DNA from: Nemertoderma westbladi
Lineage: Eukaryota > Animalia > Xenacoelomorpha
Reading direction: 5' to 3'
Assembly: GCA_032718475.1 (NCBI GenBank)
Contig: JAUCBJ010005111.1
Location: 21,789-85,788, forward strand
Length of the DNA stretch: 64,000 nt
Position numbers and translations under genes: made by a program. Of this stretch, positions 2,347 to 54,908 are shown in pieces. The first letter of the stretch is position 1. Each line of letters starts with the position of its first letter. The notes beneath the pieces were generated by a model. That model made no database searches and was not told the DNA's origin. It worked only from the letters and a program-made list of their open reading frames with translations.

Positions 2347-3576
2347 TGTTCGCGCTTTCAGACCTTTAGCAGTTTAACCTGCCAAATTTGGATGTCTTCT
2401 AGATTGTAAATCGACTTTAGCCTATGACGAGTATTTGATACACTACATTAGCCGAAGCCAGTCTATGCGCGACCATTCACCCGCTGGATATACCCGGGAG
2501 ACTGGATTCGGAAGCCTAACCTTATTGCGGTGTAGGCCTACTGTATTATTCGACCGATCGTAATATATAATCTCTGACAAATATTATTCACTTTCGGGAA
2601 ATATTAACAGTTCCTTTAGGACGTGGCGCTCTAAATGTGTAAACAGAGTTATGACTTAAACTAGACACAAAGGGATGGCTATGGATTCACGTATATAGCG
2701 CATTCTTTAGGAGATGCTTTGTTATCAGTCACAATCATACACACTACTGCACAATACTGCACACCGATCTGCCGACCTTCACTAATTTTAGTCACATATA
2801 AAGAGAACAACAACCGACTCATGTAGTGCCTATGAAATAGCATTAGATTCACTTCAAACCACTTTAATGTAAGTCGCAATTGTTATATGTAACCGGTCTC
2901 TCTTACCTTCAGTATATCAAGAAGATTGAGGGTTTTATAATTATTTATCGATATTCCAAATATAATAATATTCCATCAACTGATATAATGAATAACCGAC
3001 AGTAAATAGCAGTAAAATTGCGGTGTTTGTATTTGACAATATGATTAGGTGAGTGAGATAACAGATATACGTTTCTATGATTAAGCCTAATAATGTTGGG
3101 CTAAAGCCTGAAAAACACAGAGATTCCAAAGCCGGTCTTCTAGGCTCGGAAAAAACCAACACAACTGATCCCTCTGGGCTGTTGTAGGTATCTTTCAACA
3201 CAAAGAGAAACAGCTCTCATTGGCCGAGTTCCAGATTCTGTAGGTTCCACGAATGTCTAAATGCTGAACTATTCGGGTTTTTGCAGCCCATATTCAACAC
3301 AAGGCGAAATCGCTCTGATTGGTGGATCATTGTTCTGATTGGTTGATCGAACAGAACAAAGAGCCTATAGGCGTACAGCAAATCGGTTGGTAGATTGCGT
3401 CATTTGAGTTAGGTAGTTTAGAGTATTTGAGCGCATTGTGGGAAAACTGGCTTTTTATGTCCGCTAAAGCACACATGCAGACACAGCGGATAAATCGCCA
3501 GTTATGTCCTCTAAAAACACCTTACACAGTACATTGCGGAGAAAAGGGCCAGTTATATCCCGCAAAAGCTTTTACA
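2347..3576 (-). repeat. E1 3' LTR
   Basis: About 99% identical by eye to 12839-14069. Preceded on the minus strand by short purine tract TGGGAGCGG (3577-3585). Confidence 0.95.
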
Positions 3577-3654
3577 CCGCTCCCAGAAAATGGGATTTAA
3601 TTCTATAAAATATAAAAAATCACAGTTTCTAAAATATAAAAATACTCTAAACAG

Positions 3655-5014
3655 CTAGTCTTTCTTGCGCGGACGGCGTTTACGCAGTTTTTTGAGGCTA
3701 GCAAGAGTTCTTTTCTCTTTGGGGCGAGCCACTTTACTAGGAGGGCTGTAACTCCTGGGTGAAGGGTGCAATACAATTGCATCAGAAGGTTTAGGGTTAC
3801 GGTCGATGTCTCGTCCATTTCGATATGCTTCTCCTCGAGCTGATTTTCCTCCGCTTATCGTTGGATGCGTTCGTCCAAAACTCTTGCAGAGAATAGGGTC
3901 GTCCAAGTTCGATATCTTCTTAGAGATTCTGAATTTCCTGATCGAACTGAGATAAAATTAATTCGTTTACCGCTTGGACTTGCTGCTGCAATTTACGTTT
4001 CTCTAAACAATTGTAGGTTCATTTTCCGATCTTTTGACGAATGGTGTCCAACGCGTTTCGTACAACTCTTTCCTCCGCCTCGGTGACAGGTTGTATCGGG
4101 TTAAACAGGGACGATGATACGGTTGAATGGCGATATTAGCTGTCCGCGTCCCAATCCGACTAAGTAAGATGGGTGAATATTTAGGGAGTCCACAACCGGA
4201 GTGCCACCGACTAACTGTTCGGGTAACACTAGATCTTTGAACAGTGAGTACAGTTCGGGAGGATCCGTGATACTATTAGGATCAAGAGTCTGAGGTCTAA
4301 CTAGGGAATGAGGAGGTCTGACCGAGTATTCCGGAACTCTGATCATAGGTTTATTTAAGGATCGTTCGAATCGAGCGAGCGTAGGTGATACATCGAACAA
4401 GTTTCGCTCGAAACTCCCGTAAATATAGCGAGTAAAACTGTGTTTAAAGCAACGTCTCCGCGGATGTTTATGTCTTTCCGTTTGTTGGTTGGGTCTTGGG
4501 CATTCATCGCAATAATACCAAAGACGCACGTCTTGTAGGGGAAACACGGGTGATATTTATTCGGTTTTACAACGTTTCTCTCAAGAATTCTAAATATACG
4601 TTGGAGTTACTGCGTTTATCCGATTCTTTAACGTCTTCTCTTTCGAGTCGATTTCGAATAGAATTTTCGCATTCGATTTTCAGTTTATCGTTCCGACTCA
4701 GCTGGGTAGGATACTCAAAACAGTACCATTTCCCTTTCGGTGTCGACATCGTCCATATCGTGTAAATCGATAGAATGACTAGTAGTTAAGAAGTCCATAT
4801 ACATACCATTACGATGTGTATAGCGAGCGGTGAATTTTCTATAGTCTAATTCACGCGTAAGTTGCTCCTGGGACATTGGCGGTTCGATATAACGACCATT
4901 GTCCTCCGTAGTAGTTGGACCAGCGTCACCGCGCATCAAGCTATCAACAAACGCTTGTAAAGGTAGAGTATATCGCTCCCTGATACCAAGATCATCTTCT
5001 ATCAACTCAGTCAT
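3655..5014 (-). pseudogene. E1 accessory ORF3 remnants (Cys/His motif LWYYCDECPR...CFKH)
   Basis: Broken minus-strand ORFs 4715-5014, 4567-4749, 4101-4547, 3655-3906 between the pol remnant and 3' LTR. Motif similarity to E3 ORF 47830-49092. Confidence 0.5.
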
Positions 5015-6648
5015 ATCTGCTATATGAGTTTATCAATATTATAATGAGTTTATATTTAGGCTAGCGGGCGTCGCTGCCTACCCCTCTCGGCCCCCGGACA
5101 GCGCAAGATCCTCAGCGCTGGTGTACTTTCGCCGATGTGCCTATCGCCAACGTCGTAGCTGCACAACGACCACAACAACCAGCGCGAGTCACTCCACCGT
5201 CCGTCCCAAAGGCTTAGATTTACTTCAGGTTCTTACTGGAGAGTTAGGGCTACTTTCACAATTGCGACTCGCTACTGTAAACACACTTTAGTAGTAACAT
5301 TCACCTATAAACGCACAAATTCCACGCAACTGTCACAAATTGTACACATTCGGGCCATTTGTACGTTAGTCAGTGCCTTCCAGAATGCCACGTTATTATT
5401 GGGTATCCTGGGATACTAGCAGTGTGCTATTTATTCCTTATACTATTCAATGGGCAAGCTTTATTGTTCTTTTAACTCACTTCTAATTCTAGCGTGGTTG
5501 TTGCCATGGTGACATTATGGAAAGCTAGCTGTAGAATTAGGGTAATTCTCATGCATACAGATCTGGGATGCCATTTAATAGTAATTCTTTAATTGTCAAT
5601 ATTTCTCTTTATACATGATTTTATGAATTTTATCGGCTATTGACTATATATTGGAGATTCTCGCACACTAATATACTTAATAGGGTGAATCTCCGCTCCC
5701 ATGATCTATTAATTTACAGAATTTTGGGAATGTTATAAATTGTATAAAAATGACAATTTATCAAATTCATTAAAATATGAATTTAAATTTATTCCCGTAA
5801 ATTTTATTATTTAATATTAAATAGACACAATTTTATTCCAGAACATGTCTGGGGACTAGGATCCTTGATTCTAGGAAATTGGTCTTTTTAAGAATATCGG
5901 TAAGTGCTACGATATCTTAATAGACTAGAATTTTAAAGGATCTAAAATTTGACAGATTTTGTAAATATTAATAATTAATATTTAGGATGGGCACCAGTTT
6001 ATTCCAGAACTTGTCTGGGGACGTTAACCACTGATTCTAGAATTTTGTCTTTCAAGTATATCGGTGGGTGCCGCGATATCTTAATCGACTAGAATTGCAG
6101 ATGGTCAAAGGGTTTAACAGATTTATTTGTGTTGTACGCTACTGTTAAAGGGACATCACGCTACTATATGTATTATTTAATATACGGTATGAGAGCAATA
6201 TCGCACGAAGCAATGTCAGTGAGAAGAGGCAAGTCGTTTCCAAGGTCTACCCAGAGCTTGGTTTAGCCGAGACACGAGGATCTGAACTTTGCATTCCTAA
6301 TACTCTACTTACCAATAATACTTTAATATAGTAGGAGCTTTATTGTACTTTAATAAGTACGGATATTTCATCTTACTGTAGTTACGTATTTGTAATGTAA
6401 TACGGACAGTAAGGAAAGAGAAAAAGAATTATTTCTCGCCGTCGCACTAAATATATAATATATAAGTAATTAAGTAATAAACGCGAATATATATTGCACT
6501 AATCTACTAAATAATCGCTAAAATAACATTCTACTAAATAAAATTAAAGAAAACTATTATAATAAAATTACATAATAATACATACATAAATATAAAATAA
6601 TAAAAACAAATATAAAATAATATAGTCACACACCCACTCCAGACGCTG

Positions 6649-8637
6649 TTACGTTGGGGAGTCCCTAGATGTTTGTTGGATTAGGGAGGTGGTCGTGGGA
6701 AGAGTATCTTGCCTTCCATAGTTTCCGGACAGTTCTCGGTCTCGTTCCAGTAAACATAAACGACCAACTGGGCGATTGAGCTGCTGTGTCTCGAAGACAA
6801 TTCCAGGTTTCCTCTTCGTCCTGGAATATTGACGATAGAAACATCGCCTCAAATACACGACGGCCTTACAAAGCCGATTCCAGGATCTATAGTGGTCCAT
6901 CGCTCCCGGCAGGAGAGGTGAGAGTCCCGGCGAGACGTCTGGTGTTCCAGATCTCCAGTCTCTCTCTCTGATCTCCACAACAGATCGGTTCGCGGTGGGG
7001 GAGTTTAGATCCACAGCGTCATCCCTGGCAATGTGTAATACAGACAGATCTATCACGGGTTTAAATAACCTTGATTTACTCGTCCGGGTTTTAGGTTTGA
7101 CTTTCTCCGCTCCCTTGGCTTGTCTAATCTCAGCCGTGGTAAGATGGGGAGGCCATTCATCTTCTTTACTTAAGAAGTCGGGTCCACCTAACCAGTCTGG
7201 AGTATCTGTCAGTTCTTGAGGAGTTGCTCCTCTGGAAGCGATGTCGGCTAGATTAATCGTCTCGGGGCAATATCTCCATTGATCTACATTAGAGTTAATA
7301 TCGTCATTATCTGAGGAGTATGGTGTTCCCTCAGTTGGGTCGTCAACTTCACTGCTCTCCACTTCCCATTCACTTAATTGATATACTCGTTCTTTTGGTA
7401 ATCTTTCCATAAGAGTTCTACGGGAAGGGCCAGTAAAGTACCAACCTACTCTAGTTCTTCCCGCATAGGCTTGTAGTGGTTGCGGTTGAGCAGGCCGTTT
7501 CTCCAATGTCTCAAGCGCCTCATGCGCATTTTGGCCGATGAGTATTTGCACTCCAGGGTAGTCTGTGTTGAATCTAGGTATATTAAGCTGCTGGGTGGAA
7601 TCGTCCTCATCCCAGTTATAAGGTTCTACTTGGCTGGTAGCGAAGTTCTTTATCGCCACCATTTTTACTGACCTTATGCTGTGTTCTCCTAGTTCATCCT
7701 GGGGGGTGGACAACGCACCTACATAATAATCCGCTATTACTGTAGATTTCCAAACCTGCATAATTCCTGACATGTTTAACTTAGTTCGGAACTTGGGTTG
7801 TCCAGCAAAGATGTCTTCGGCTAGTTCTTTGACGATGAATGTTCCTGTGCTACCGGAGTCAAGGAGGGCGTTCACTGTATAACTCCTTTTAGGTCCGTGG
7901 ACCCTTAACTGCACTACGGGAAATTCTCGGATTCCTACATTGGAAGTTGGTGCTTTCCAAGATGGTTGTCGGTCAGAAGTAGTTAGGGGGAGCTCGCTGT
8001 CGGTGTCCTTTTCATACGTAAGTGCTCGATACACTGCGGTATTTATCAGGTAACAGGATTCGTTTTCGTCGGAGAATTCGTCCGTATAGAATCCTTCCAT
8101 CTCAGAACTTTGGTCAGTGTCGTTCACATCACTGAATTGGACATGTAGTTCGGACTCACTTACCTGACTCGGGCTGTTTCGATCGAATTCAGTGTGCAAC
8201 AAGATATGATGTTTTGCGCCGCACTTTGCACACCTTGCGTCGGAGTAACAGGTTTGCCGTTGGTGTCCTCGTCTGAGGCAATTATAACACAACCGCTTAT
8301 CCCACATGACTTCACGTCTATCCTTTAATGATTTCCTCATGAATTCATCACACGCACTTAAACGGTGGGGCCCGTCGCGCAGCACACATTTTGGTTTGAT
8401 GTTACTTACCTTACTCTGGGTAACGTTGTGCACACTCGTTCTTTCCTCGGGCTTTCTTACATGAATTCTCTTAGGAGACATAGGAGGAGTTTTTCTTACC
8501 TGTTCTCTCCTGTCATTGGTTCGAGACTTGAATTTACTTACGTCCTTAGGCGCTTTGTTGTCATAGTAAGATCTTTCAGTGTCTTTCCCGCTGTCTTCCT
8601 CTTGAGAAGCCTGGCTTTCGCCGTCGTCTGTAAACAC
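6649..8637 (-). CDS. E1 nucleocapsid knuckles + aspartic protease fused in frame to short RNaseH-end and integrase-end remnants
   Basis: CYNCLRRGHQRQTC, CAKCGAKHHILLH, ALLDSGST; then WRYCPETINLADIASRG...WLGGPDFL and RPVGRLCLLE. No YVDD and no integrase core. Confidence 0.85.
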   Translation of the reverse strand: MFTDDGESQASQEEDSGKDTERSYYDNKAPKDVSKFKSRTNDRREQVRKTPPMSPKRIHVRKPEERTSVHNVTQSKVSNIKPKCVLRDGPHRLSACDEFMRKSLKDRREVMWDKRLCYNCLRRGHQRQTCYSDARCAKCGAKHHILLHTEFDRNSPSQVSESELHVQFSDVNDTDQSSEMEGFYTDEFSDENESCYLINTAVYRALTYEKDTDSELPLTTSDRQPSWKAPTSNVGIREFPVVQLRVHGPKRSYTVNALLDSGSTGTFIVKELAEDIFAGQPKFRTKLNMSGIMQVWKSTVIADYYVGALSTPQDELGEHSIRSVKMVAIKNFATSQVEPYNWDEDDSTQQLNIPRFNTDYPGVQILIGQNAHEALETLEKRPAQPQPLQAYAGRTRVGWYFTGPSRRTLMERLPKERVYQLSEWEVESSEVDDPTEGTPYSSDNDDINSNVDQWRYCPETINLADIASRGATPQELTDTPDWLGGPDFLSKEDEWPPHLTTAEIRQAKGAEKVKPKTRTSKSRLFKPVIDLSVLHIARDDAVDLNSPTANRSVVEIRERDWRSGTPDVSPGLSPLLPGAMDHYRSWNRLCKAVVYLRRCFYRQYSRTKRKPGIVFETQQLNRPVGRLCLLERDRELSGNYGRQDTLPTTTSLIQQTSRDSPT

Positions 8638-10577
8638 ACTGGTATTACCCTTCTCCTAGAAATGGGTTTCTCACTTACCTTATTTTCCGGTGTCTTCTCT
8701 CTGGACTGCTTTAGGAGCTGTAATTTTACTTCTCCATCTAAGAATGACATGAGATCAGCCATGGTAGGGTCTCGTCTTTGATGTTCCATCATATATAACA
8801 CTTTCTTATCCCAGCATGTACCTACTCCACCCTTAGGTAAAGTAGACGCCACGGCTCCAATAACCATAGAACTCTGATATTCATGAGACTTACCTAGCCA
8901 ATCTAATTGTCTACAGATCTCCTGAATCTCATCGGAAAACTCTATAATCCCGCTGCTAATGAATTTTCGGGGCGCTACCAATTTTGCATACAAATACCTA
9001 GCTATGTTATTCCTATTACCATACCTGATGTTTAGGGTATCCCAAACTTGTCTTAATCCATCTGGATGTCCAATAAACTTTAACGCCATTAACTTGGGAG
9101 ATCCTTCCAAGCACTCGATGAGGAATCTAAGTTTCTCTCCGTTAGATAGCACAGAGTTCTGTATGTTATCTTTGTAATATTCATTAAAAGGTAACCATTT
9201 CATCTCATCTCCATTGAACTTGACGATCTCTCCCACCTTTACCGCTTGACGGGCTTCGGTTCTAGCCATTTGACGTGTAAAACTTTCTTGGGCCATCGTG
9301 TTATTTAATATCGAGTTATCGGTATATAAATTTCTCGGATTATGATCAGGTCTATATGGAATATCATTGTCAACAGGTTTATAATTACCCTTAATAGGGT
9401 TCACTTTAGGAGTTTCTACTTCACTAGCAGTATAGATGCGTGTAGGCTCCACACCTTGCGCATGAAATACTTCAGACCTAACAGGTTGACACATTGTTAC
9501 CGGGGTTGGTGGTATACCCCTTTGGATATTTACTAATTTGTCGCGTTCTAATGCGATACTCTGCTGCACCTCTTGCAACTCTAACCTACTTTCCCTCACT
9601 GTGCCATTGAACTGCTGAACAGTTCCTTCCATCTCCCGGACCTGCTGAGAGGAGCACTTGCGGTGTTCCCTCAACTGCCCGAGCAGGAGACCCATCTCCC
9701 GTCGTCCCTCATCTACCCACTCGACCGCCGAAGCGGGAGGCGCCAACGTAGTAGCGGGCGGACGAGGGACAACGGGCGACAAATCATTAATATTTCGCTC
9801 GGAGTCCAGGACATGAACATTTTCTGGGGTGGTTCTGTTGGGCACAGGTAGTTTCGTGCTGTGCAAAGGGAATTTAGAGGTAGGTTCTGGGAGTACAGGT
9901 GTCTCTATCACCGAAGGGGTGGCTTCGAGAACAGGCCTAATTATTTCAGGTTCATCTACTATAGTAGGGAGTCTTTCTAATCCAATAATTTGGTCTGTGG
10001 GTTCTGTACTACCTAAGTCTACACTATCCAGTTGCATTCTCGCCTCAGGAGGTAACGTCCGCTTGAGCATCCGTCTACGTCCGCTTGAACGAGATTTATT
10101 ACCTCTACCTTCGGGATCTCTCATATCACCTTCATCAGAGGAAGCAAATCCCTGTCTTCTGGAAGTATATCGACTCAGTAACCGCATCTGAGCTGCAACC
10201 ATAGCTGTCCTTTGTTTCTTCAAGTATTCTTGTTCCGCCTGAAGTTTTTCCAGCTCTAATTGGGTGGTCTCTTCAGATTCTCTTAGTTCTGCTTCTGCCA
10301 CTGCCGCTTTTCTTTCCGCTTCTATTGCTGCAGCTGCCGCTTTTCTTTCCACTTCTACTTGCTGTTGCTTTAATTGTCTATCCTTAACTAGCCTAGGGTC
10401 GTCTGACACTACTACTGAAGGGATGACCTTTCCTACAGTAGGGGACTTGGACTTTGGTCTGGGATGTTCTATACTTTGATCTTGGTCACAGATCCTTTCA
10501 AGACACTGTCCAAGTCTAAGACTCATTCTAACGCCTTCCAAAAGACTATCTGACAGTGCCCGTTTTGTGTCAGACAT
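8538..10577 (-). CDS. E1 Gag (coiled coil + BEL DUF1759-like region)
   Basis: 679-aa ORF with KFNGDEMKWLPF...EKLRFLIECLEG...W..L..RYG, typical of BEL/Pao Gag. Confidence 0.85.
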   Translation of the reverse strand: MSDTKRALSDSLLEGVRMSLRLGQCLERICDQDQSIEHPRPKSKSPTVGKVIPSVVVSDDPRLVKDRQLKQQQVEVERKAAAAAIEAERKAAVAEAELRESEETTQLELEKLQAEQEYLKKQRTAMVAAQMRLLSRYTSRRQGFASSDEGDMRDPEGRGNKSRSSGRRRMLKRTLPPEARMQLDSVDLGSTEPTDQIIGLERLPTIVDEPEIIRPVLEATPSVIETPVLPEPTSKFPLHSTKLPVPNRTTPENVHVLDSERNINDLSPVVPRPPATTLAPPASAVEWVDEGRREMGLLLGQLREHRKCSSQQVREMEGTVQQFNGTVRESRLELQEVQQSIALERDKLVNIQRGIPPTPVTMCQPVRSEVFHAQGVEPTRIYTASEVETPKVNPIKGNYKPVDNDIPYRPDHNPRNLYTDNSILNNTMAQESFTRQMARTEARQAVKVGEIVKFNGDEMKWLPFNEYYKDNIQNSVLSNGEKLRFLIECLEGSPKLMALKFIGHPDGLRQVWDTLNIRYGNRNNIARYLYAKLVAPRKFISSGIIEFSDEIQEICRQLDWLGKSHEYQSSMVIGAVASTLPKGGVGTCWDKKVLYMMEHQRRDPTMADLMSFLDGEVKLQLLKQSREKTPENKVSEKPISRRRVIPVCLQTTAKARLLKRKTAGKTLKDLTMTTKRLRT

Positions 10578-11908
10578 GTTTGTTTGTACAGTTGAATGCC
10601 TACTGCTATATTACAGTTAAAGCAAGTCTAGTAATTCAGTATCACCGTTAGCCTAGTAATTAATTACCGATACTGTTACTCAGTGTAACGTGATATATAT
10701 ATATAATATATTAGAATACCGGTATACACTTATAGTATATATATAAGTATTATTACAGACTAGGTTTGTCACAGAATACCGGTATATAATTTCAGCACAA
10801 CTATATATATTATATATAATAGGCCTATCGTGAATACCGGTATACAGCTTACACTTATAGTACATATAAGTATAATTATGGACTAGAATTAATTACAGAA
10901 TACCGGTATATAATTTCAGCGCAAATTTATAGAAATAAATATAATGAGCCTATCGTAAATACCGGTATGTCAATTATTTTAGAATAATTGAATTTCTGAA
11001 TTTTAGGGGTTACTTGGTTACTTTACTTTACTTGATTACCGTTATTTAAGCAGTAGTCCAACTGATATTAAGACCTAATGGTTGTAAGACAGGCCTACTA
11101 TTTTATAAATCGGTTTGAGTTGATTTATAATATATATACCCGTTTAATGGGTTTTTGTCAATATTTGAAATAAATGTTATTATTTCTGGGAAGAAGTCAC
11201 TGCACAGAAGCTGTATGCTCTCAGTGAAGTGCTACTTGTTGGACACTAAAACAAATAATTCTAATTTACCTAAGTTACTTAATACTACAAATTACTTACA
11301 ATTCGGGGTGAGATTACAATCTCTAAATAAACACAAAAATTACACGTACGAATTTTTAGGGTAATTTTACAAGAAGTCTACAAACCAGCCTAACAAAGGG
11401 TTAGAATATCTGGTTATTACAGACAGGATACTACGGTATTTGAAAATAACAAGCAGTAGTAAATATACTGCGTTGTCCAGATAGGAAAAAATACCACCGT
11501 CTGACGACTTATAGCCGTATCGCTATAAGTACTACGTTATGTATCACGGAGTGTTCCTACCTAGAAGTTAATTACCGCGGTCTACCAGAACCAACGTGCC
11601 TATTAACCACTTTACAACACAAATATACTGCCTACACACTAATTACTTTCGGAAAGCACTGTACACTAAACCCTAAATTAGGTACAAGTACTTATACAAC
11701 AAATAATCAGCAGTTAGAAATACTTGTACAGCTAAAAGAACCACGGTATCTGCTGGAGTGACTGGGGCACAAAATCACCAGTCTTTACCTACGCCAAGCA
11801 GCCCTGATGTAGTACCGGGGTTAATTTAACTATAACGTTATGTATAACAAGCACAATTACTGTAGGAATAAACTTGGGGATATGAATGTTGCGAATAAGC
11901 GCATAAAC

Positions 11909-12825: not shown

Positions 12826-12838
12826 GTATATCTGTTAT
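12826..12838 (-). promoter_or_regulatory. E1 primer-binding position, non-tRNA, complementary to its own LTR (13551-13563)
   Basis: Minus-strand ATAACAGATATAC abuts the LTR end. Its exact complement GTATATCTGTTAT lies in the LTR on the same strand. Confidence 0.65.
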
Positions 12839-18493: not shown

Positions 18494-18504
18494 GTCAAAA
18501 CTAT
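18494..18504 (+). promoter_or_regulatory. E2 primer-binding position, non-tRNA, complementary to its own LTR (18247-18257)
   Basis: GTCAAAACTAT directly after the LTR. ATAGTTTTGAC present in both LTRs. Confidence 0.6.
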
Positions 18505-18521
18505 CAACTCAACAACTGTGA

Positions 18522-42300: not shown

Positions 42301-45300
42301 GACACGCCCATCTGTTATTACAGCGGGCAACCCCTACGCATGTAGAACTCCCATAGGTTGGTATACTAGAGCACCAATACGTTCACTAGAGGTAAGTGAC
42401 CAGGAGGACGATGTTTTGAGTACGTGTAGTTTATTGACTACTACGATAGATAACTCTCCTTCACACTCCTGTGGTCCAATTGTACGGACGGCACTACGAC
42501 AGACTTGCGTCGCTAACGCAGATGCCACCGATACTGACGTAACTGGTCTGGACACGACCACACGGACCTCTGACTTACAACTACTTGCAGTAAACCAGGT
42601 TGTATTGACCACCGAAGACCAAAGGGTTGTTGCTGTGGATGACTCGATGAACGAGGATTTTGGAAGGCTTGCGAGCCTACCGAAAAATCCAAAGGTCATT
42701 GACCCCACCCACCAGGCTTCGACACCGGTCGTTGATCTTGGAAGGCTTGCGAGCCTACCGATAGATCAAGAAGTTGTCAAACCGCCGCACGACGATTCGA
42801 TGACGACTAGTGACACCAGAAGGCTTGCGAGCTTACCAGACGCATTGACACTAGCCACCGCAGCGGACGAAGACGTGGACGAGGACCATGGCGCAGTGCA
42901 AGCAGCGCTAGACCGACTGCTGACTGAACGGACCATTCAATGGTTGGAACAGGACTCAGCAGAACCCGGTAGTTACGAGACCGCTATGTCAGAACAGGAA
43001 AAACGGTCATTAAATATTATGAGAGATGCCATTCGCCAGACCGCAAATAGCCACTATGAGGTTGGTATGTTGTGGCGCAATGGACAACCTAAGCTCGTTA
43101 ACAATTACCCGCTTGCTTTGAGGCGACTCAAATCAATAAGGCAGCGATTGTTGCGAGACGAGACAGCCCATATGCAATAGAATGCGCAACTTCAGACGTA
43201 TCTTCAAAAGGGATACGCCATTAGGATGTTAAATCCCGAGGTAACCACAGACCAGACATATTACCTGCCACATCATTTTGTTCGACACCCGGACAAACCT
43301 GGCAAGGTGCGTGTACTCACCGACTGCGCCGCGCTTTACCAAGGGATGTCTATGAACAGCGAACTGATGGATGGGCCGAATATGAACAATTACCTCATGG
43401 GAATCCTAATGCGTTTTAGACAACGCAAAGTGGCTTTCACCTGCGACATAGAGGCCATGTTTCACCAGGTTAAGGCTTTGGAGCGGGACAGGGACAGCTT
43501 GAGGTTTCTTTGGTATCCGGACGGAAACTTAGAACTTCCGCCAGAAACTTACCAAATGCAGGTAAGAGTATTCAGAGCCAGGGACAGCCCCAACTGCACC
43601 ATGTACGCCTTAAAGCAGACCGCATTGGACAGATGAGACCAATTTGACCCAGAAGTAGTTCGGACAGTGGAACGAGATTTCTACGTGGATGACGGCCTCA
43701 AAAGTGGTGACACTTTGGAGCGCGCTACAACCGTAGCACACCAACTCCAGGATTGTCTCGCTGAGGGCGGATTCCACCTGACGAAGTTCGCTTCCAACGA
43801 ACCCGAACTGGTGAACTCATTTGACCCGATGGATCGTAGCGAAGGTGACTTGGACTTAGACCTAGAACCTCTGCCGACGACCAAAGTATTAGGACTTAGT
43901 TGGGACCCTAACACCGACAATTTTAGGGTACATGTAAGGTCCAACGACCAGACTAGACCTCTCACTAAGAGGACTTGCTTATCGACCATGAGTCGATTGT
44001 ATGACCCATTGTGTTTCATTAGTCCAGTGATCCTACATGCTAGGATCATACTCCGCAGCATTTGGCAAGCCGGACTGGAATGGGACGATCCCATCTCAGA
44101 AAAGTTAGCTGAGCGATGGAGGGACTGGGAAGCCCAACTGACGTTCCTACAAGACTATACCATACCGAGGGTATACTTTCCTTTGCAGACCACCTTTCCT
44201 GCCGATTTAGAGCTTCACAGCTTTAGTGACGCTAGCAAGGATGGATTGGGGGTTACTTTATACCTTAGACGACAAGTGACATCGGACAGCTACGATGTGT
44301 CTCTCGTTACTTCTAGGGCTAGAACAATGCCGTTGAAGTATATGACTGTACCTCGTGGAGAGCTGCAAGCCGGGACGATATCCACCGATATTGTCAGTCT
44401 AGTTTAACGCGAGCTGGAGGCTAATTTGAAGGTCACATATTGGACGGATGCGACGTTGGTACTTTGGTACATAAACAACGAAGCATTTGAGTTCAAGACT
44501 TTCGTAGCCAACAGACGGGCTGAAATATTAGACCGGTTGCTCAAACAAGATTGGCGTCACTGTCCAGGGAAGCTGAACCCAGCTGACATCGCTTCACAGG
44601 GGATGCAACCGTTTGACTTTTGTAAACCGGACAATAAATCCTTTTGGTTTAGAGGACCCGATTTCCTACAGCGACCATCAGACGAATGGCCACCGTTATT
44701 CGACGCGACAACCAATACCATACCAGAGGGTGCCGAGATAAAAATCGACAAGGTTGTCAAATCCAAAGCGAAAGCCAATGCCAAGGTCAAGAGGAAACAG
44801 GGACGGACGAAATCTGATGACCTGGACGCCAGACCTGACATTACGCCAGACATCTCACCAGACACTCGACCAGACGCTTGTACGAATCTTTCGCCGGATG
44901 TTCCGCAGGAGATTCCACCAGACGTTTCGCCGGATTGTTCACCAGATTACTCGCCAGATTATTCACCAGAAGCGACACCAGATTGTTCTCCGGATTGTTC
45001 GCCAGATTGTTTTATGGAACTCTCGACAGAATGTCTACCAGACGTCTCACCAGACTTTCCACCAGACATCTCGACAGACTGTCCACCAGACTTTGGACAA
45101 GACTTTCTGACAGAGGTTACGCTTGACTCTCTTTGGGACCGATGACAGGACATTTTGCCGGATGTTCCGCGCTATGTCTCACCAGACTGTTCACCAGACG
45201 CTTCACCAGACTGTCTACTAGACACTCCACTAGAAGACCCATTGGAGCGGACTTTTAGAGACTTACCAAATTTGACTTCTTTGGACGACAAAGGTGTGGC

Positions 45301-47092
45301 CACAGCGATCACACTCCGCTCAAAGAAGGTACTTGACTTACCACCTACAGGTAAACGTGTGACTAAGGTTAGGAAGCTTACAGGCTCACAGGAACACACT
45401 GACACTGTAGAGTTGTAACCGTTACTGCCAGTCGACTCACTAGAAGCGGATGGTAAAGGTAAGACCATAGAGATTGACATACTTGGGGACTCAGACAAAC
45501 CTACCGGAAGGCCCGTGGGCCTACCAAGTCCAGACAAGTATCCACACTATGACTATACCTTACCTGATGATGTCACTAACACTTACGTTGACAGGATAGT
45601 AAACCTAACTAGATCATGGACTGACGCGTGCCGCAAGTTAGCATGGCTCAAACGTTTGAGACAATATGCCAGAGGCAAACGCGACTTTCCTAGAAGACTT
45701 ACCTTAAGAGAAGTTGGTCATTGTGAAGTTGATATCATTCGCCATTATCAATTGCGATATTTCGCACGAGAGTTCACAGCGATCAATCAAGGTAAACAGA
45801 TTAAGTCTTCACCGATTTTGAGTTGGAGTCCGATTATTTACCGGGGCTTACTTTGCCACAAGTCCAGACTCCAAAACATCGACTTTGCACTAGACTTTAG
45901 GTATCCTATCATCATACCGCAACACCATGAATTACAGCGCGCTATGATACTGGACGCACATGTACAACTCAAACACGTGGGTAGACACCACTGTCTATCA
46001 CACTTACGATCGAGGTTTGTACTGATTAGACCTAGTAAGGCACTGAGTTCGGTAACACGGAATTGTATGATTTGTAAGAAGGTGCACGCGAGAATAGGAC
46101 ACCAAGAAATGAGTGAACTACCACTAGCGAGATTACAGGCATTTAGACCCCCTTTCACTGAGACAGGGATAGACTGTTTTGGACCCATAATCGCGAGACG
46201 CGGAAGGGTACAGGTAAAACGTTGGGGATTGATCTTCACTTGCATGGCCAGCAGAACTGTCCATATAGAGCGCATGACAGATTTGACCACCAATGCCTTT
46301 ATCCTAGCCTTACGGCGATTTGTCGCTAGACGTGGATTGGTCAAATCCATTTATTGCGACCAAGGGACAAACTTTGTGGGTGCACGGAACGAAATAACCA
46401 GAGCTTTGAAGAAGTTGGACCAAAACCAGTTTTACGAGGAACTACGCCCTCACCGTATTGTTTGGTATTTCAATACTCCAGACAGTCCGTGGAGAGGCGG
46501 CGTTTGGGAAAGGCTGATTGGCTCAATAAAAACAGCTATGGCTAAAGTAATACCGACGCAACACATTTTGACAGACGACCAACTGACGACGTTGTTAATA
46601 GAAATCGAAGCGATTTTGAACACTAGACCGATCGCCTTGATCCCAGACAATAACGACGCACAGTTTGCCTTGACACCAGCGCACCTGCTTATGCAGGCGC
46701 CGACGACATTGTTGCCCATTTCGGTACCCGTTAATAGCGACGGATACGGCAACAAAGCTTGGAAAATCACTCAATTGCTTGCAAATAAATTCTGGGAAAT
46801 ATGGCAGAAATATTATTTGCCCTCTATTTCAACCAGAACCTCTTGGTATCTTAATACCCGATGTTTGAGACGAGGAGACCACGTTTTATTGGCTGAAGCC
46901 AATCTGAAAAGACGATTTTGGCTGACTGGAGTCATTTTGACCACGCACCCTACATCCGGTGTAGTGAGAACAGTTACTGTAAGGACTATCGACGGTCGTA
47001 CCGTAGACAGACCTGTACAACGTCTCGTGCTCCTTGAGGAGACTAGAAACGAGACAGGAGACTACAAATCTCCACCCAATATTAGTAAATAG
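39386..47092 (+). pseudogene. E3 gag-pol polyprotein, single frame with premature stops
   Basis: All ORF pieces share one frame: PPKFSGN (gag), CWRCTKPGHVRKDC, AILDSAS, CDIEAMFHQV, FYVDD, FSDAS, YWTDA, H..H..CMIC, GIDCFGP, CDQGTNF, WERLI, RPVQRLVLLE. Confidence 0.95.
44830..45220 (+). repeat. 12-bp coding tandem repeat (xSPD) between RNase H and integrase of E3
   Basis: Repeated tc(a/g)ccaga(c/t), giving PDCSPDYSPD... Confidence 0.85.
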
Positions 47093-47829
47093 AAATGTGG
47101 GACCTTTGTTGGCCGCCACATAGACTTACCGTATATTAGTAATTTAGTATTTTGTATTACTGTATGTGCATTTGTAATCCTCTTCACTGTAGATAGAGAC
47201 AGCGGTGGAATTCTATTGTCTTTATATGTGAACATGGAGGGTAGTACCCTTATGTATCATATAGGAGCGGGATTGTGTGTACAGTAGGAATGGAATTCCA
47301 CTTGGAACCCACAAGTGAGACAATTTTCAAAAATTATTAGACAAATCCATTTAGTTGGAATTAAATTTAAGAAAAATGATTCTCCAGTGAATGCGAATTC
47401 TAGAATACAGCTAGATAAAATTAAAATTGGGGAGGACAAGAGCGGATGGAAGGCTTGCGAGCCTACCGATAAAATTTTTTTTTGGAAAAGAAAATCGGCC
47501 TTGTTCTACATAGTCGTGTCTACTATTATTTAGACCGAATTAATTCTCGACTGCATTATTTCTTTGGGAATGTAGTTTGGGAAATTAAAAGGTGAGTATT
47601 TTAGACTCGCGGCTAGTTTACCCGGAATTCGTTTTTTATCGGCACATTTTTTTTTGGATTAGGAGCCCGTGCGAAATCACGCGAACCCGAAGTCATTAGG
47701 CAAATGGGTTGGGGTTTTAGAACAAAGTTGAGCCAAAAGCCGACAAACTCTAAGTCACCTCACATCTAACCTCTATTTTGTGCTTCATCTAGTAGAAACG
47801 TAACGATATGTAACCATATATACGCATAT

Positions 47830-49092
47830 ATGATGGGGGAGAAGATTTATAAGGAGTTACGTCAGGGGTTTACGCAGGAACAAGAGCACCAGGCGCCGTT
47901 TAATCATTATGGAGCTAAAAACTTTAGTGTGTTTGGAGTGGAGAGTATGGCTAGGAGTACAGCCAAGCTCGCTAAATCCAAGGCGGACCCGAATGTTACG
48001 CGACAGCGATTGGATGCTTATAACAAAAGAACGGAGGAATTACGCGCGGAGTTCAATGCGTTATATCCTTACGAAGCGTTATGCGACGCTAGCGACATCT
48101 GCGAGGATCCAGACACCGAAATACGCCGATTATATCATATGCTGCAATATTTGACGGCAAATGAACCCTTACCTGCAGCCAGAGACGAATTTGGAGGAAT
48201 GCATCTTTATAGACGCGCTCGAGGAGCGGATCCAGAGACAAAGGACGCGTTCTCAATATACAAACTGTTTTATAAATGTGGAGTATGTATGCGCGAGCAA
48301 GACAACGCAATTCCTATGCGGTTGAACTCGGAGAACCCCGAGCCGATATTAGCGCAATGCTCATACCACCAAAGTCTACGTTACCAAGAAGGCGGATACC
48401 CTTTGACGAATCCGTATCATTCATTTAAAATGAGTGGACCGAACGCGGGTGAGATCGTTATTTACGAACCTAAATTAGTCGAACCAGACGTCTACAGCAT
48501 GGTAGTGGACGAATCTAACAAGTCGACGCAAGAGAAACGGGAAGCTTTGAGCCTCTACAGGGCGTACAAGGCGTACGAGAAAGGCGAGATCGAGGAGTTC
48601 GGCGGAAGGCTCGCGAGCCTACCATTCTATTGGATATCCCACGATCAAACCGAACCTAAGGAGATGACACCCGAGCTCTTCGATAGTATCACCTTTGCTC
48701 AGCGTTTGTCGCAGAGACTACAGATACCTCATGTCGAGATGACGCGAGAACCTCAACCCCATTCTGCTGGAACGATAGTACCGGTTGCGAGACCAACTAG
48801 TTTTCCTATTAGTATACCGACCCGGAAGGAGACAACTTACGAGATTCCTATAGTTGAACACCCGGAGATCTTTTCGAACCTGGATTTCCTCCCATCGGTT
48901 ACCTATGGTGATGTGTTAGAGTCAGCCGAGTTGTGTAGAACAATAGTTCAGAAAATCGTACGCAACGTGCCTCCACATATTACGGACTTTAAGGAAGTGG
49001 ATCGCGCGGGGACGGATATCGCACCTTGTATCTTGCGAGGATATCTGACGAGAACGAACGATTCGATTATGGATCGGAGTTGGAACATTTGA
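47830..49092 (+). CDS. E3 accessory ORF3, N-terminal part (CxxC...CxxH motif, unknown function)
   Basis: 420-aa ORF after pol, LFYKCGVCMR...CSYHQSLRY. Probably joined to 49205-51514 through frameshifts. Confidence 0.65.
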   Translation: MMGEKIYKELRQGFTQEQEHQAPFNHYGAKNFSVFGVESMARSTAKLAKSKADPNVTRQRLDAYNKRTEELRAEFNALYPYEALCDASDICEDPDTEIRRLYHMLQYLTANEPLPAARDEFGGMHLYRRARGADPETKDAFSIYKLFYKCGVCMREQDNAIPMRLNSENPEPILAQCSYHQSLRYQEGGYPLTNPYHSFKMSGPNAGEIVIYEPKLVEPDVYSMVVDESNKSTQEKREALSLYRAYKAYEKGEIEEFGGRLASLPFYWISHDQTEPKEMTPELFDSITFAQRLSQRLQIPHVEMTREPQPHSAGTIVPVARPTSFPISIPTRKETTYEIPIVEHPEIFSNLDFLPSVTYGDVLESAELCRTIVQKIVRNVPPHITDFKEVDRAGTDIAPCILRGYLTRTNDSIMDRSWNI

Positions 49093-49204
49093 GACCGACA
49101 CCAACATCACGACCAATTGGACCAGAAAACCTATTAGTTTCGATGATGAAAAGTCGATTGGGAGAATTTGGAACCCTACCGACAATTTACTCGACGATTG
49201 GGAC

Positions 49205-51514
49205 GTGACTAGCCGATCTCTGAAGGAGAATGGTTACATGTTTTACGATAATGAAGGAGGAAGCCACCAGCAAAGCCTCACTTCGAAGACTATACAGATT
49301 AGAGCACCAGATGGCGTGTTACATGTCTTCAGCCGACAAAGAAGCGATAGAAAGATGCCTATGCCGGAAGGAACGACGCAAAGACACGCGATGATAAAAC
49401 GGATAGTTAAATCCGTGGACCTGGCTTGTAGCATAGAAGCTAGGATGTTGCCAAAGGCCGTGCGAGACATTGTGTTAGACAAAAGCATCGTCAAGATCGG
49501 ATCCGGTGTACGGGATGACCTTATTAGCGACTTTGCAGGGATGCCCACAGAAGAGGATCGATTGCCTACGCCGTATGTGGATACTAGACCATTGTTGCTT
49601 TGGGCTATCGAGCAAGGATACTTTAGGGAGTATAACACGCTAAAAACTGGGACGGGTTATATCTCATATCTAATGTTCAGTTGGGATTATAAGGAGAGTA
49701 AGAGGAGCAAATACACGGACGTATACGGAGAGGGAGACACTCCCGACGTAAATGAGTTCGAGTCACAGCTAAAGTGGCGAGGTTGCGTGTACTGGGCGAT
49801 TACTTCACCTCCGCGAATAATCTTACAATACTACTTGGCGATAGAATCTTCGGTCAACGTCTGCTTCATCGCCGATGTTATGTCTAGGACTTTAAAGCGA
49901 CATCCGTTATGTCTCGGTGAAGGACATACCTTTTACGACAGAGGAAGGACGCATACTGATGTATTCCGACGATTTCTCCAACCCTTTTATAACACCGATG
50001 CGCACTGCGAAGTTTTCACGCGAGCGGGACTTAGCGTTTTCAGGGACGTCTATCTCACTCACTCGGGAAGCCTAGTCGACAGACCATCAATGTTAACGTT
50101 AGTACCCTATGACGGGGAACGCCACGCGGAATTCAAAGGCCCGGAAGGATCCTGGAAGGCTTGCGAGCCTACCGCCCATCACGACGATGTGGATCCGACC
50201 GAGTTGGCGCTAATAGACGAACCGTTGCGGCAACTCATAGAAATAGAGGAGAATCTTCAGAGGAAGACGCGAACTGAGATACGCGAGTTGGAGAAAAGCG
50301 AGGCCATGGTTTGTGTACAACCCACGGAGACGAACATACCGACTGACCCGGATGATGAGAATTATCACGTGGACGGTAGCACTCGCCCCATCGGAGATCT
50401 TATCTATGAGCGAGTTTGGTACCCTGCCAACACTATTTGTGGCAGATGCGGGGCAACTGGCCACCACGCAAAGAAATGCGGAGCGAAACACATATCTCTA
50501 CCGGACTTGGTATGCAACTGGTGCGGGGATCAGCGTTCGCACACTTTCTACACTTGCTGGCGTTTCGTGGCGCAGTGCACATATTGCAATATTAAAGGCC
50601 ATAGGGCGTCCGAATGTCAACTTAGAGACGTTCCCTATGAGCATATGTCAGTTAAAATCGTTCGACAGCTATTCGACCATTGGGAGAATCTAGCAGACGA
50701 GCATGTATCAACGCAGCGACGCCGTTTCCCTATGAGAGCACACTTAGGATTTTGGGCCGTAAACCCTCTCATAATGTCGAAGGAAGGATACGTGTCGGCT
50801 ATGCCTCAGTACGACGAACTTCTGGAAGTGCTGGATATATTGCCACTGGATAGCGGATTTAAAGTTGTGCGGGACTACTTTCTACAGGTACACCCCGACA
50901 ACAAGAATACTTGGAACTTTCAAACTGTGGTGAACAAGATTACCGCCGGGGAATTCGACAAATTGCGAGTTGAACAGCGGAATCGAGGAGCCTGGCATTC
51001 GATAGCTTGGGCATACAGGAGCGCATTTTATCACAAACGCGTAACCTCGTGCATTCTAGACGAGACCGACGTTTTGCGTGAGATTGGCTTCAAGGCCACG
51101 CCGTTAGCTGAAAAGACGCGTCACCCACAGGATGATCCGCAACTTCGTATACTTAGAGCCCAAAAGGCCGGACAAGAGATAAAGAAAGTAGTAAATGTCG
51201 CCGAGAGGACGACATCGAAGTCGCAAATCCGGATGAGTCGGGGCACGGTTTCCCTTGCTAGAGAACCACGCGGAGGGACAGGATACGCTTTGCCGGAACC
51301 CATTAGGAATCAAACGACGTCAGAGAGCGAGGTGTCAATGGACGGAACGGTCCTACCCTTTCGACTTCCTCCCAGCGTTGTAGAAACTCGATCCGATGTT
51401 AAGCCGACAGTTGGAATCGGACGAGGATTTAGAGGACTGAGCGCACGACGGATGTGCGAGACTCCCGTCGTCCCCTTTCCTAGCGTTTTGGAACCACCGA
51501 CAACTCGACACTGA
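49205..51514 (+). CDS. E3 accessory ORF3: DEDDy-type 3'-5' exonuclease + three CCHC zinc knuckles
   Basis: FYDNEG; IQIRAPDG; LPKAVRDIVLDKSIVKIGSGVRDD; YVDT; QYYLAIE; CGRCGATGHHAKKC, CNWCGDQRSHTFYTC, CTYCNIKGHRASEC. Confidence 0.85.
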   Translation: MTSRSLKENGYMFYDNEGGSHQQSLTSKTIQIRAPDGVLHVFSRQRSDRKMPMPEGTTQRHAMIKRIVKSVDLACSIEARMLPKAVRDIVLDKSIVKIGSGVRDDLISDFAGMPTEEDRLPTPYVDTRPLLLWAIEQGYFREYNTLKTGTGYISYLMFSWDYKESKRSKYTDVYGEGDTPDVNEFESQLKWRGCVYWAITSPPRIILQYYLAIESSVNVCFIADVMSRTLKRHPLCLGEGHTFYDRGRTHTDVFRRFLQPFYNTDAHCEVFTRAGLSVFRDVYLTHSGSLVDRPSMLTLVPYDGERHAEFKGPEGSWKACEPTAHHDDVDPTELALIDEPLRQLIEIEENLQRKTRTEIRELEKSEAMVCVQPTETNIPTDPDDENYHVDGSTRPIGDLIYERVWYPANTICGRCGATGHHAKKCGAKHISLPDLVCNWCGDQRSHTFYTCWRFVAQCTYCNIKGHRASECQLRDVPYEHMSVKIVRQLFDHWENLADEHVSTQRRRFPMRAHLGFWAVNPLIMSKEGYVSAMPQYDELLEVLDILPLDSGFKVVRDYFLQVHPDNKNTWNFQTVVNKITAGEFDKLRVEQRNRGAWHSIAWAYRSAFYHKRVTSCILDETDVLREIGFKATPLAEKTRHPQDDPQLRILRAQKAGQEIKKVVNVAERTTSKSQIRMSRGTVSLAREPRGGTGYALPEPIRNQTTSESEVSMDGTVLPFRLPPSVVETRSDVKPTVGIGRGFRGLSARRMCETPVVPFPSVLEPPTTRH

Positions 51515-52155
51515 AGTCCGAGTCCTGTTCGATCTCGACCACCACCCAGTCGTACTAGAGGACGTGGACGAGCCCGCTCGGCCAAGGAATAGGAAAGCGA
51601 AAGAAAGGAAGGCTTGCGAGGCTACCGATTTGGATGTTTGTATTGGACATTTGTGTTTGGGATATTATATTTGGGATTTATATTGGGATTTATATATTGG
51701 GATTTATATATTGGGATACTATATCGAACGTTGAGTTTGGAGGAGCGAGATAGAGAAGGAAGGCTTGCGAGCCTACCGTTAGCAATTAGTGCTCAGGAGA
51801 AGACATCCAGACCAGCAGGACGAACTTTTCAGATCGTCAGGAGGACACTTTAAGACTTATTTGAAAGATTTTAGCGCATTATGTTTATTTTATATTTGGA
51901 CTGATTTAATTTGGTGGAAGTTTATTATGTATATTTACAATATAAAGATTTATTGAAAGATTGAAATTATTTGTTTGATTTGTTCTAATTTGTATGATGG
52001 ATTGTATTTACGCCGTACCTGCAATATTAAGTATGCAATAATTAGATAGTGATTATTTTATATTTTAGGCCCTACCAGTAGATTTAGAAGTATTTGTAAA
52101 TAGTTTTGTATTTCGATTGGTGAAAACAGTCTTACTTACTGTTTTCATGGAGCGG

Positions 52156-54908
52156 TGATGAATTATTTCACTATAAGATAGCATTTGTAGTTTAACTTTA
52201 ACGTAAAAACTTTCGAAAATCCGACGCATTTTGATTATGTTACAGTAATGTAATATGCCTACTCATATCAGTACACATAAAACCCCTGGTTAATCTCGTG
52301 GCGTAGTGGTCAGATGGTTAAGGCGTTGGTTGCATTACATAGGTTACGAGTTCGAATCCCAGTCGGGAAATTTGCATTTTGGGGCAATTTATTTTCATTT
52401 CATACAATTTGACAAACCAATGAGGTGCGTACAACACATGGAACGATGAGTTGGGCCAATCATAGGGCATGGAATATCTTATTGCTCCAATGTGAGGCCA
52501 TGGAATACTCTAGAAAGTTCTACTAGATTCTATGTCCCAGATTTAGTATATAAAGGGCTGGTTTGCCTTCGGTTATCACTTATCTCTTCACTTGTAAAAC
52601 TTCTTCTGTACCCTTATCTCTTGCATTAGTGCTTCACTCTCTTGCTTAGTTATTTGTTTCTTGTTGAAACTATGTTAATCTGTTTGATAATTCTTTGCTA
52701 AACTGTAAATACATTTGTAAACTTCTGAACATGTTTTTCTGCATTTGTCCAACTTTGGGACAGCAAAGCATCAGGAAGATGGCCGCCTAGACCGTTAGGC
52801 CGTCAGCAACGCAGGGAAAGGATGTCCACAACACGCTAGCGCCCACATTAGCTTAGACCGCGCACCCCTTCGCCCTTCGAAATGCTCCACTTGCCATGCA
52901 GCGCCCGCTTTATGAGGAAGGTAAGACTTTGTTTGACGCCCTTGCCCGACGTAAGACCTATAGATCAGGGTAAGCGTGACGCCGTCCTGGGACGCCGCAA
53001 ATTTAGGATCAAATAACTATATTTTGGCAGAACCCCCCCCCCCCCCCCCCGTCAGTAGTACGAACCCCTGGGTTACCTGTGTACCTCACAGGTGCAAATT
53101 ATTGCCGTTCGTCAGTACGCGAGTACACATTAGGTACGGACAGCATATGTTCCATAATTTAGTGATTCGCAGTACTGACCGTTTGGTACCGGTTCGCTTT
53201 GTAGACTATACATTAGTACCCTCTACCTACGCACCTCTACCCTCTACCCCCTCCTGAAGTTAGTTATTTGATCAGGCAAGGAGTATTTCTGCTACCGGCA
53301 CACCGCTTGGCCTAGGGAGGTTTTATTAATATCCTACCGCGCCTTTCCACGTACTGAGGTGGCGGTTTTTTTTTTTTTGAGGTGGCGGTTTTTTTAACAT
53401 TTAACATTTATTTATTTCTTTCATAATACATCAATACATCAACATTTATAATAACTTTATAATTACTATAAATTTATACTATATTATTAATATCAGATAA
53501 ATAATATTATTGTTGCAACTGCATCCGAGCAATAGCATTGCTAGTGTAGCTCGAGTGCTTAGCTGCTTGAAGTATTATGGAGGGAGAGGGGGGACTGATA
53601 GGTATTGCTGCTAACTACCGCAGCAACAAAGTTCTAGAATCAAATTTGTATACCAGATCAGCTAACGTACGGTAGCGATTAACCCCTATTTCTTGTCTTA
53701 CAACCAGCATCTGGTATTTGTGCCGATCACAGGTGTAGTTACTAACACCGTGGTTGCCCAGTTGAGTTGTGGATAGGAAGGAGAGAGCTTTGACGTCATT
53801 TGTAAGTATAAAGTTCTACAAAACGCGACTAGCTTATTTTAGTAGCTAGCGCACGGTATCGTTTTGGTCAGAGAATTACTAAAACCTAGTAAATGATATA
53901 CACCAAAATTGTTTTATTGTAACACACCCACGCACACACGCCCTAAAACATATTTACCCTTAGAGTTCCTACTAGATAGCGCAATTTAGATTTTAGGCAG
54001 AATTTATCTGTATTTGTAAAATAGGATCAGATATTTAGTTACGGCAAAGGAGTATTTCATTTTCGTTATTAAACTGTTGTTTGCCTAGAGCAGCAGTATT
54101 ATTACATTAGGTCCGACCCTTTTAGACTGATTTCGGACAGGGGGATCAGTTATCGTTACATTTAGGCACGACCTCTTTTAGGCTGATTCAGACCAGACAG
54201 GGGGATCAGTATTGTTACGCTAGGGCTGTAACCCACCTAGCTCGTATATAAACCATATAAATCACACCGCGGCAAGTTACTGTATTTAGGACTGTCAGCG
54301 ATAGTTAGGATTCGCTGCGCGGGGATTGTTTTCCCGTGAGTTTGGTCTGTTACTGTAACTGAACATCTGCCATACCGGTTAGAGGACAGGTATCCTTTTG
54401 TCTAGTTCGTAGGCATTAGACCCACCCACGTACATAGAATAGACACCAGGCTCTGCTCCTCGCCAGTAGTAGTTTGTGTATTGTATCTGTTTGTTTAGAT
54501 ATCCTGGACTGGGATTTGTTGTCAGATACTGTACGAGCCCGTTTCATTACTAGAGTCTTACAGTAAGATACATCGTTACTAGGATCTTGTAAGCGGTATA
54601 CTACTGGACTTTACGGATAGAGATATTCTATAGCTTCGTATTAGTAGATTTGTAGGCTGTAGGGTAGTCCCTACCGTAGAGGACACAACATATACTATGT
54701 TGGACCTAGTGCGTGGTAAGAGCACAGTTCACTTGTGCTGCATACATAGCATCAGTAGATTATAGTTACTAGTTGGGGAATAATATTGCAGTACTATGGA
54801 CGCACACACTCGCACTAAATGAACCGAATCTATTACAGACAGGGAGTAGTCAGCACCCAACCGTGTGGAAAACGAGTTGGTGTGATCTTTGGTCTTGTAT
54901 ATTCATCA
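52156..54908 (+). repeat. E3 3' LTR (about 2.5 kb plus a 236-bp insertion)
   Basis: Starts TGATGAAT after the PPT and ends ATTCATCA. Confidence 0.85.
53358..53593 (-). mobile_element. Short poly(A)-tailed retro-insertion in the E3 3' LTR
   Basis: Absent from the 5' LTR, flanked by ACTGA duplication. Poly-T and TTTATT on plus correspond to AATAAA and an A tail on minus. Confidence 0.7.

Follow-up and report, generated by a model that had tools for sequence, protein, structure and literature searches.

Replication primed by an element's own RNA has been described, in the available parts of the reports, for the Tf1/sushi group (Tf1/Tf2/Tj1), for plant Tcn1 and for the copia TAR elements Houba and Osr-1 (PMC7175516, PMC4600332, PMC6317226). 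In Tf1, according to the accessible text, RNase H releases the first 11 bases as the primer (PMC7175516). For BEL/Pao elements (Belpaoviridae) the International Committee on Taxonomy of Viruses (ICTV) gives an 18-nt site for host tRNA-Arg or tRNA-Gly, with env as the only third gene (PMC8742986). A DEDDy exonuclease as third open reading frame (ORF3) is carried by the gypsy-type Juno/Vesta and the Penelope-like Athena/Terminons of rotifers, and the part of that account consulted proposes processing of the 3' end of element RNA (PMC5408684). The subject here is a 64,000-nt stretch of the Nemertoderma westbladi genome (contig JAUCBJ010005111.1, positions 21,789 to 85,788, forward strand; hereafter the window) holding three distinct BEL/Pao elements, E1, E2 and E3, bounded by long terminal repeats (LTRs). 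On sequence comparison, all three families (3/3) have a primer-binding site (PBS) complementary to their own LTR, and its sequence differs from family to family. Tf1-like self-priming, widespread in BEL/Pao, appears to be the best reading of these sites.

The initial annotation had recognised three BEL/Pao elements, and the domain content agrees. Pfam matches in the window comprise DUF1759, Peptidase_A17 and DUF5641 (PF03564, PF05380, PF18701) and the integrase zinc-binding domain. Together with 886 BEL polyprotein matches they give BEL-type gag and pol domains in the order protease, reverse transcriptase (RT), RNase H (RH), integrase (IN). Each element has TG..CA LTRs, a polypurine tract and a 5-bp target duplication. 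The 18-nt site for a host tRNA was not found in the E1-E3 families, which lack TGG and have self-complementary sites; by sequence, their membership of BEL/Pao rests on pol, not on the type of primer site. All three window copies are defective through stops, frameshifts or deletions: E1 has lost RT and integrase and is non-autonomous, E2 carries frameshifts, and E3 combines in-frame stops with a deletion running from the 5' LTR into gag.

In E1 and E2 the primer site is the exact reverse complement of a segment of the element's own LTR (13 and 11 nt respectively), read from the first base past the terminal CA, and TGG is absent from the first 60 nt after the 5' LTR, as had been noticed at the outset. 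Dinucleotide-shuffled LTRs matched this pairing in 4 of 5000 cases for E1 and 7 of 5000 for E2, with offsets of 0-5 allowed, and the sites pair with the LTRs of the other elements over 4-8 nt only. Because pairing of the same length also occurs at other internal positions (1 of 9231 in E1, 2 of 9603 in E2), its weight lies in its position at the LTR boundary. The duplex closes both the minimum-energy and the centroid fold of E2 (z -3.1) and likewise of E1 (z -2.0). The E2 segment forms the first bases of a block identical between its two LTRs, which are 87% alike overall. A divergent E1-family LTR (1-615, minus strand, cut by the window start) keeps 12 of the 13 segment bases and about 20 nt before them, the remainder having drifted. 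Allowing splice junctions in the E1 or E2 LTR brought no gain over contiguous pairing.

For the E3 family, the leader is seen in other copies. E3-family contigs of runs X1, X2 and X3 (two samples; 6, 4 and 4 contigs) continue past the LTR end with one common start, which is also present in a single contig and absent from the two contigs of X4. This leader lacks TGG. Compared by eye, it forms from its first base ten Watson-Crick pairs and one G-U pair with the 5' LTR copy, and one further G-U pair with the 3' LTR copy. The window 10-mer of the pairing segment was found in 10 of 3000 LTR shuffles.

Self-complementary sites also occur outside the window. When metagenome contigs were scanned with BEL pol motifs, 17 of 64 parts yielded 607 matching stretches; 526 of these could be confirmed and the best 80 were kept, which gave 74 loci. 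The primer scan took the 47 loci with DNA on the gag side and tested contiguous pairing as well as pairing across GT..AG junctions. A self-complementary site was detected in 14 of the 47 loci, representing 11 families. In 13 loci the pairing crosses an LTR splice junction (10 families after merging L034/35, L043/60 and L045/47), and in L052 it is contiguous. Contiguous matches arose in 11 loci, but only L052 was retained because its LTR pair fixes the boundary. The spliced-type sites are 11-15 nt long, lie 0-3 nt after CA or TA, and take a fixed 7-8 nt from the second exon. In several of these families the first paired base is an A preceded by C, as expected of an initiator. The site starts with GT in 10 of the 11 families, as in E2, and with AT in one, as in E1, so the primer end looks alike with or without ORF3. 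A zero spacer is not special to E1-E3, since L030, L062 and L073 may have one too. An ordinary TGG site was present in six loci, five by pattern and L072 by eye.

Cross-family pairs used as a control matched in 56 of 2142 cases, and therefore about one of the 13 spliced matches could be due to chance; complement-only and reverse-only controls gave 0/47. Between the sister families L036 and L060 two exon bases have changed, and so have the two corresponding bases of the primer site. These are compensatory changes between relatives of the kind that the initial annotation had proposed to look for. In the sequences themselves, the complementarity, its register, its spread over 11 further families without ORF3 and its covariation are demonstrated, and the proposal of self-priming is supported and reaches 11 families beyond those first considered.

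A splice match in L001 was rejected, its site lying upstream of the junction. A relaxed splice search of 16 loci left without an assignment found none, an unanchored self-complement scan was noisy, and scans of viral contigs returned nothing. L031, L044 and L061, whose LTRs are complete, show no TGG site and no self-complement, possibly through damaged junctions or a third primer type. In L045 (85-95), L047 and L052 (905-915) the shared LTR sequence before the primer site ends in TA, not CA. The E2 segment (18247-18257) reads as AG plus 7 nt, like the acceptor and second-exon part in families with a spliced primer; it could be left over from such a primer or could be coincidence (about 1 in 16).

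A tree was built from 1066 RT-RH-IN columns and 32 rows, with 29 of the 74 loci and with E1 left out for want of these domains. The six tRNA-type loci all lie to the same side of a branch supported at 96, and one change of primer state suffices. E2 and E3 are sisters (support 97), both on long branches, so their shared self-priming and ORF3 are probably to be counted as one event. A gag-protease tree gave no placement of E1.

E2 and E3 have 3.9 and 5.1 kb of space past pol. ORF3 of E3 shows ExoI, ExoII and ExoIII-like motifs and three CCHC knuckles, and E2 has the same parts spread over three frames. The ExoI D-x-E and the ExoII D are found in both elements, while ExoIII reads Y-x3-E in both and Y-x3-D in the homologue P0121. 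The 440-aa ORF upstream of the exonuclease in E3 is likely the N-terminal part of ORF3. No window ORF3 protein has a direct Pfam match. An exhaustive search of 1.84 billion representatives gave four matches, of which P0121 and P0122 (unnamed) share the whole layout, conserved post-knuckle tail included; P0123 and P0124 were dropped as knuckle-only or spurious. P0122 matches PF01612 at E 6e-5, just under the curated cut-off, and lacks two catalytic acids. A word-index search with E3 ORF3 returned 0 relatives and a profile search P0121 only. In the Atlas, P0121 lies close to PF01612 clusters (top score 0.87), which is no more than a lead, and the Atlas model of P0121 reaches a template-modelling (TM) score of 0.70-0.73 by the shorter row against PF01612 proteins, under the naming bar. 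AlphaFold models for ORF3 have a predicted local distance difference test (pLDDT) of 32 and 36. The best PDB match of the ORF3 profile is TbRND (7C42, E 1.3e-6), driven by the knuckles, with the exonuclease part scoring below zero. The best matches of the exonuclease domain are EXD2 and WRN (weak, E 0.03-0.2), with motifs aligned to ExoI and ExoII. The triple knuckles are similar to the RNA-binding modules of TbRND, Air2 and Lin28. ORF3 is thus a predicted DEDD-type exonuclease, assigned by motif and homologues, and the exonuclease-like region with three knuckles initially noted past pol in E2 and E3 holds on both counts. An N-terminal ORF3 remnant in E1, also reported then, finds no support: of 10 stop-free E1 stretches compared with the E3 N-terminal ORF none beats shuffles (best 27/500), blastp and phmmer of E1 against ORF3 gave nothing, and exonuclease and knuckle profiles have no match in E1.

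The initial annotation joined the two traits into one candidate system. Among the metagenomic loci, 0 of 74 matched the exonuclease and knuckle profiles, many contigs ending close to pol; the same profiles recover left-out members (E3 at 5e-10, E2 at 6e-9). Eight of the 11 self-complementary families have no room for ORF3. In six the 3' LTR starts 51-440 nt past pol (the start in L030 is a candidate), in L045 it starts about 190 nt past pol by eye, and the whole unit of L071 is 5.4 kb. L036 has no ORF over 85 codons in 1010 nt, and L062 and L073 cannot be judged for room. The proposed coupling therefore does not hold. Independent assortment of the traits, named beforehand as its refutation, is seen in one direction: at least 8 of 11 families have the primer trait but not the exonuclease, while 0 of 2 exonuclease families lack self-priming. 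As to co-occurrence on an RT tree, the check suggested at the outset, both ORF3 families are self-complementary (2/2), but E2 and E3 are sisters. By this comparison self-priming does not require ORF3, and the two traits form no obligatory system.

The reading favoured here, and judged fairly probable, is priming by the element's own RNA through the LTR-paired site, with the primer 3' end likely cut by the pol RNase H as in Tf1, and with ORF3 as a predicted single-strand RNA 3'-5' exonuclease of one lineage, likely not needed for priming. The LTR segment would fold onto the primer site within the genomic RNA, and cleavage just past the last paired base would yield the 3'-OH, RNase H being the simplest agent, as in Tf1. 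Plus-strand synthesis of LTR elements copies the primer into the primer site. Here it would copy the segment back, so that each family's site would stay matched to its own LTR. By analogy with TbRND, the ORF3 knuckles might grip single-stranded RNA while the enzyme trims 3' ends, its substrate most likely being element RNAs or small RNAs aimed at the element.

Several points weigh against this reading. The signs of self-priming in BEL/Pao come from DNA sequence, and 27 of the 47 scanned loci are unclassified. TATA-like motifs are found upstream of the segments, at a distance of 155 nt in E2 and about 530 nt in E3; if used, they would make the primer internal, unlike the 5'-terminal 11-mer of Tf1. 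Whether the segment is the RNA 5' end can be argued both ways, the initiator-like A after C speaking for it and the far-upstream motifs of E2 and E3 against. Grouping of E2/E3 with the tRNA-type loci is not rejected by the approximately unbiased (AU) test (p 0.496), so E2/E3 may or may not nest inside the self-priming group. The segment is unspliced in all three window families, against one of the 11 that lack ORF3. A nuclease supplied in trans could serve elements that have no ORF3 of their own. In the ORF3 of E2 and E3 the fourth acid is Glu rather than Asp.

The closest rival holds that in the E1-E3 group only, ORF3 trims the 3' end of an LTR-derived RNA to the duplex edge, replacing the RNase H cut, with self-priming ancestral; it is considered unlikely. 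That both exonuclease families are self-complementary suits it, but probably reflects one gain. The unspliced segments of E2 and E3, well downstream of TATA-like motifs, suit it too, yet L052 is unspliced without ORF3, and the end signature is identical in families that lack it. The E3 segment stops 2 nt short of an acceptor-like AG, while E1 and E2 have no AG 2 nt downstream. TbRND, the closest solved architecture, trims single-stranded tails beside a duplex, but in the available text its partner RNA slowed the enzyme and brought it to no full stop (PMC7797062). An evolutionary version is just as doubtful: one lineage of a self-priming, mostly splice-built radiation would have moved to an unspliced internal primer and acquired an RNase D-like knuckle exonuclease that trims the RNA 3' end to the duplex edge. 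If trimming were true, this would be a retrotransposon with its own dedicated primer-maturation enzyme.

Rather unlikely, too, is an LTR-derived primer supplied in trans, as sense small RNAs, processed solo-LTR transcripts or excised introns whose ends host nucleases would make, with ORF3 unrelated. The segments may lie inside the transcript, the E3 LTR recurs very often in the host runs, and looser pairing in E1 fades over about 10 further nt 5' of the segment, as if longer primers had once been copied; but junction-spanning pairing with a fixed 7-8 nt second exon, and cis folds closed by the duplex, suit a defined cis primer better. An action of ORF3 on DNA, as proofreading or polishing of cDNA ends in the manner of WRN/EXD2 and independent of priming, is improbable: these two proteins are the best PDB matches of the exonuclease domain, but the matches are weak and the knuckles look RNA-binding. 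Finally, a regulatory or packaging duplex with priming by an unrecognised tRNA or tRNA fragment has a precedent in copia elements with half-tRNA primers and no TGG (available text of PMC6317226), but it is very unlikely given fourteen families with differing sites, each an exact match to its own LTR at the boundary, and relatives on another branch with ordinary TGG sites.

Table 1. Features of the three BEL/Pao elements in window coordinates.
Feature	Position	Strand	Remarks
E1	2347-14069	-	LTRs, 5-bp target duplication
E1 5' LTR	12839..14069	-	1231 bp, 99% identity to 3' LTR; 5-bp target duplication
E1 LTR segment complementary to primer site	13551..13563	-	LTR position 507-519
E1 primer-binding site	12826..12838	-	13 nt, no TGG, directly after 5' LTR
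E1 gag, protease, end of RNase H	6649..10610	-	RT and integrase deleted
E1 post-pol region	3578..6648	-	3 kb, short ORF pieces
E1 3' LTR	2347..3577	-	polypurine tract just before
E2	17843-28767	+	LTRs, 5-bp target duplication
E2 5' LTR	17843..18493	+	651 bp, 87% identity to 3' LTR
E2 LTR segment complementary to primer site	18247..18257	+	LTR position 405-415; second copy 28552-28562
E2 primer-binding site	18494..18504	+	11 nt, no TGG, directly after 5' LTR
E2 gag-pol	20338..24207	+	knuckles, protease, RT, RNase H, integrase; frameshifts and stops
E2 ORF3	25285..27390	+	frameshifted; ExoI 25450-25470, ExoII 25669-25686, ExoIII 25971-25991, CCHC knuckles 26683-26853
E2 3' LTR	28127..28767	+	
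E3	37332-54690	+	LTRs, 5-bp target duplication
E3 5' LTR	37332..39386	+	shortened by deletion into gag; primer site gone
E3 gag-pol	39374..47092	+	in-frame stops
E3 ORF upstream of exonuclease	47770..49092	+	440 aa, no Pfam match
E3 ORF3	49049..51514	+	821 stop-free codons; ExoI 49241-49258, ExoII 49505-49522, ExoIII 49829-49849, three CCHC knuckles 50438-50617
E3 3' LTR	52156..54690	+	2535 bp; its end is the true element end
E3 3' LTR region with segment pairing to leader of other E3-family copies	53060..53110	+	about 920-930 nt into LTR; 5' LTR counterpart near 38250

The end of E3 given in the table replaces an earlier placement at 54908, which lies 218 nt inside the flanking repeat; the correction follows from the target duplication and from the contigs of other copies, which diverge at 54690. 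The host site of E3 is another repeat with an LTR-like start (36960-37331 and 54691 onward), uninterrupted in other copies. Motifs resembling Pol III A and B boxes occur in the E3 LTR at 52299-52359 and in its 5' LTR copy; ARAGORN and Rfam detected no tRNA-like primer gene in the window, these box motifs included. In one contig of run X4 an E1-like LTR start is inserted within the E3-family LTR at the point corresponding to 52465.

The two LTRs of E2 (17843-18493 and 28127-28767) differ by 13%, mainly in patches of indels, a pattern suggestive of recombination between subfamilies and not of age alone. E2 is embedded in a 17-bp satellite, and an 88-bp repeat inside the element carries the reverse complement of the satellite core (15830-17844, 24362-24766, 28768-32473); capture from the target and a clue to targeting are candidate readings. 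Elsewhere in the window there are a non-LTR RT fragment (PF00078), an ORF with an fn3_4 domain (PF16794) and two ORFs without a clear family (864-1733; 56267-57121; 34076-34861; 61656-62381).

BEL/Pao replication is poorly understood and has been described as tRNA-primed, whereas self-priming is indicated by 14 of the 20 metagenomic loci that could be classified and by all three window families, mostly with a primer that forms only once the RNA is spliced. Replication would then be linked to RNA processing by the host. Software that relies on a tRNA site would overlook or misassign elements of this kind. The exonuclease-knuckle ORF3 adds BEL/Pao to the groups with a captured nuclease, with E3 offering a stop-free natural domain for assay, and the attractive coupling of ORF3 to priming is shown to be unneeded for self-priming. 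A term search of the available text of a BEL/Pao survey found primer, PBS, tRNA and exonuclease unmentioned. Searches of the open-access literature brought up no description of BEL/Pao self-priming or of a BEL/Pao exonuclease ORF3; one could exist in subscription papers, Repbase entries or supplements.

Compared with described systems, E1-E3 share with Belpaoviridae the gag-PR-RT-RH-IN order (PR, protease), the BEL-type Pfam domains, the TG..CA LTRs and the polypurine tract (PMC8742986). They differ from the ICTV description in their self-complementary sites, the exonuclease ORF3 of E2 and E3, LTRs of up to 2.5 kb and lengths of 11-17 kb. Juno/Vesta and Athena carry an RNase D-like 3'-5' exonuclease as a third ORF past pol, as is predicted for E2 and E3; the likeness is one of description, and the part of the rotifer account consulted has neither a BEL case nor a triple CCHC module and draws no connection with priming (PMC5408684). 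TbRND combines an N-terminal DEDD exonuclease with C-terminal CCHC fingers, as ORF3 is predicted to do (PDB 7C42; PMC7797062). According to the accessible text it is a cellular mitochondrial enzyme acting on the U-tails of guide RNAs, unlike the element-borne ORF3 (PMC7797062), and the likeness may be a convergence of architecture. As far as the available reports describe them, Tf1/sushi, Tcn1 and TAR resemble E1-E3 in having no tRNA site and a site of about 11 nt complementary to their own LTR, and the Tf1-type placement of such a site at the LTR end recurs here. The pol of Tf1/sushi is of the Ty3/gypsy chromovirus type, whereas that of E1-E3 is BEL-type, which sets them outside the Tf1/sushi group. 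The primer of Tf1, in the same partial sources, is the first 11 nt of the RNA, while in most of the metagenomic relatives found here the segment spans an LTR splice junction.

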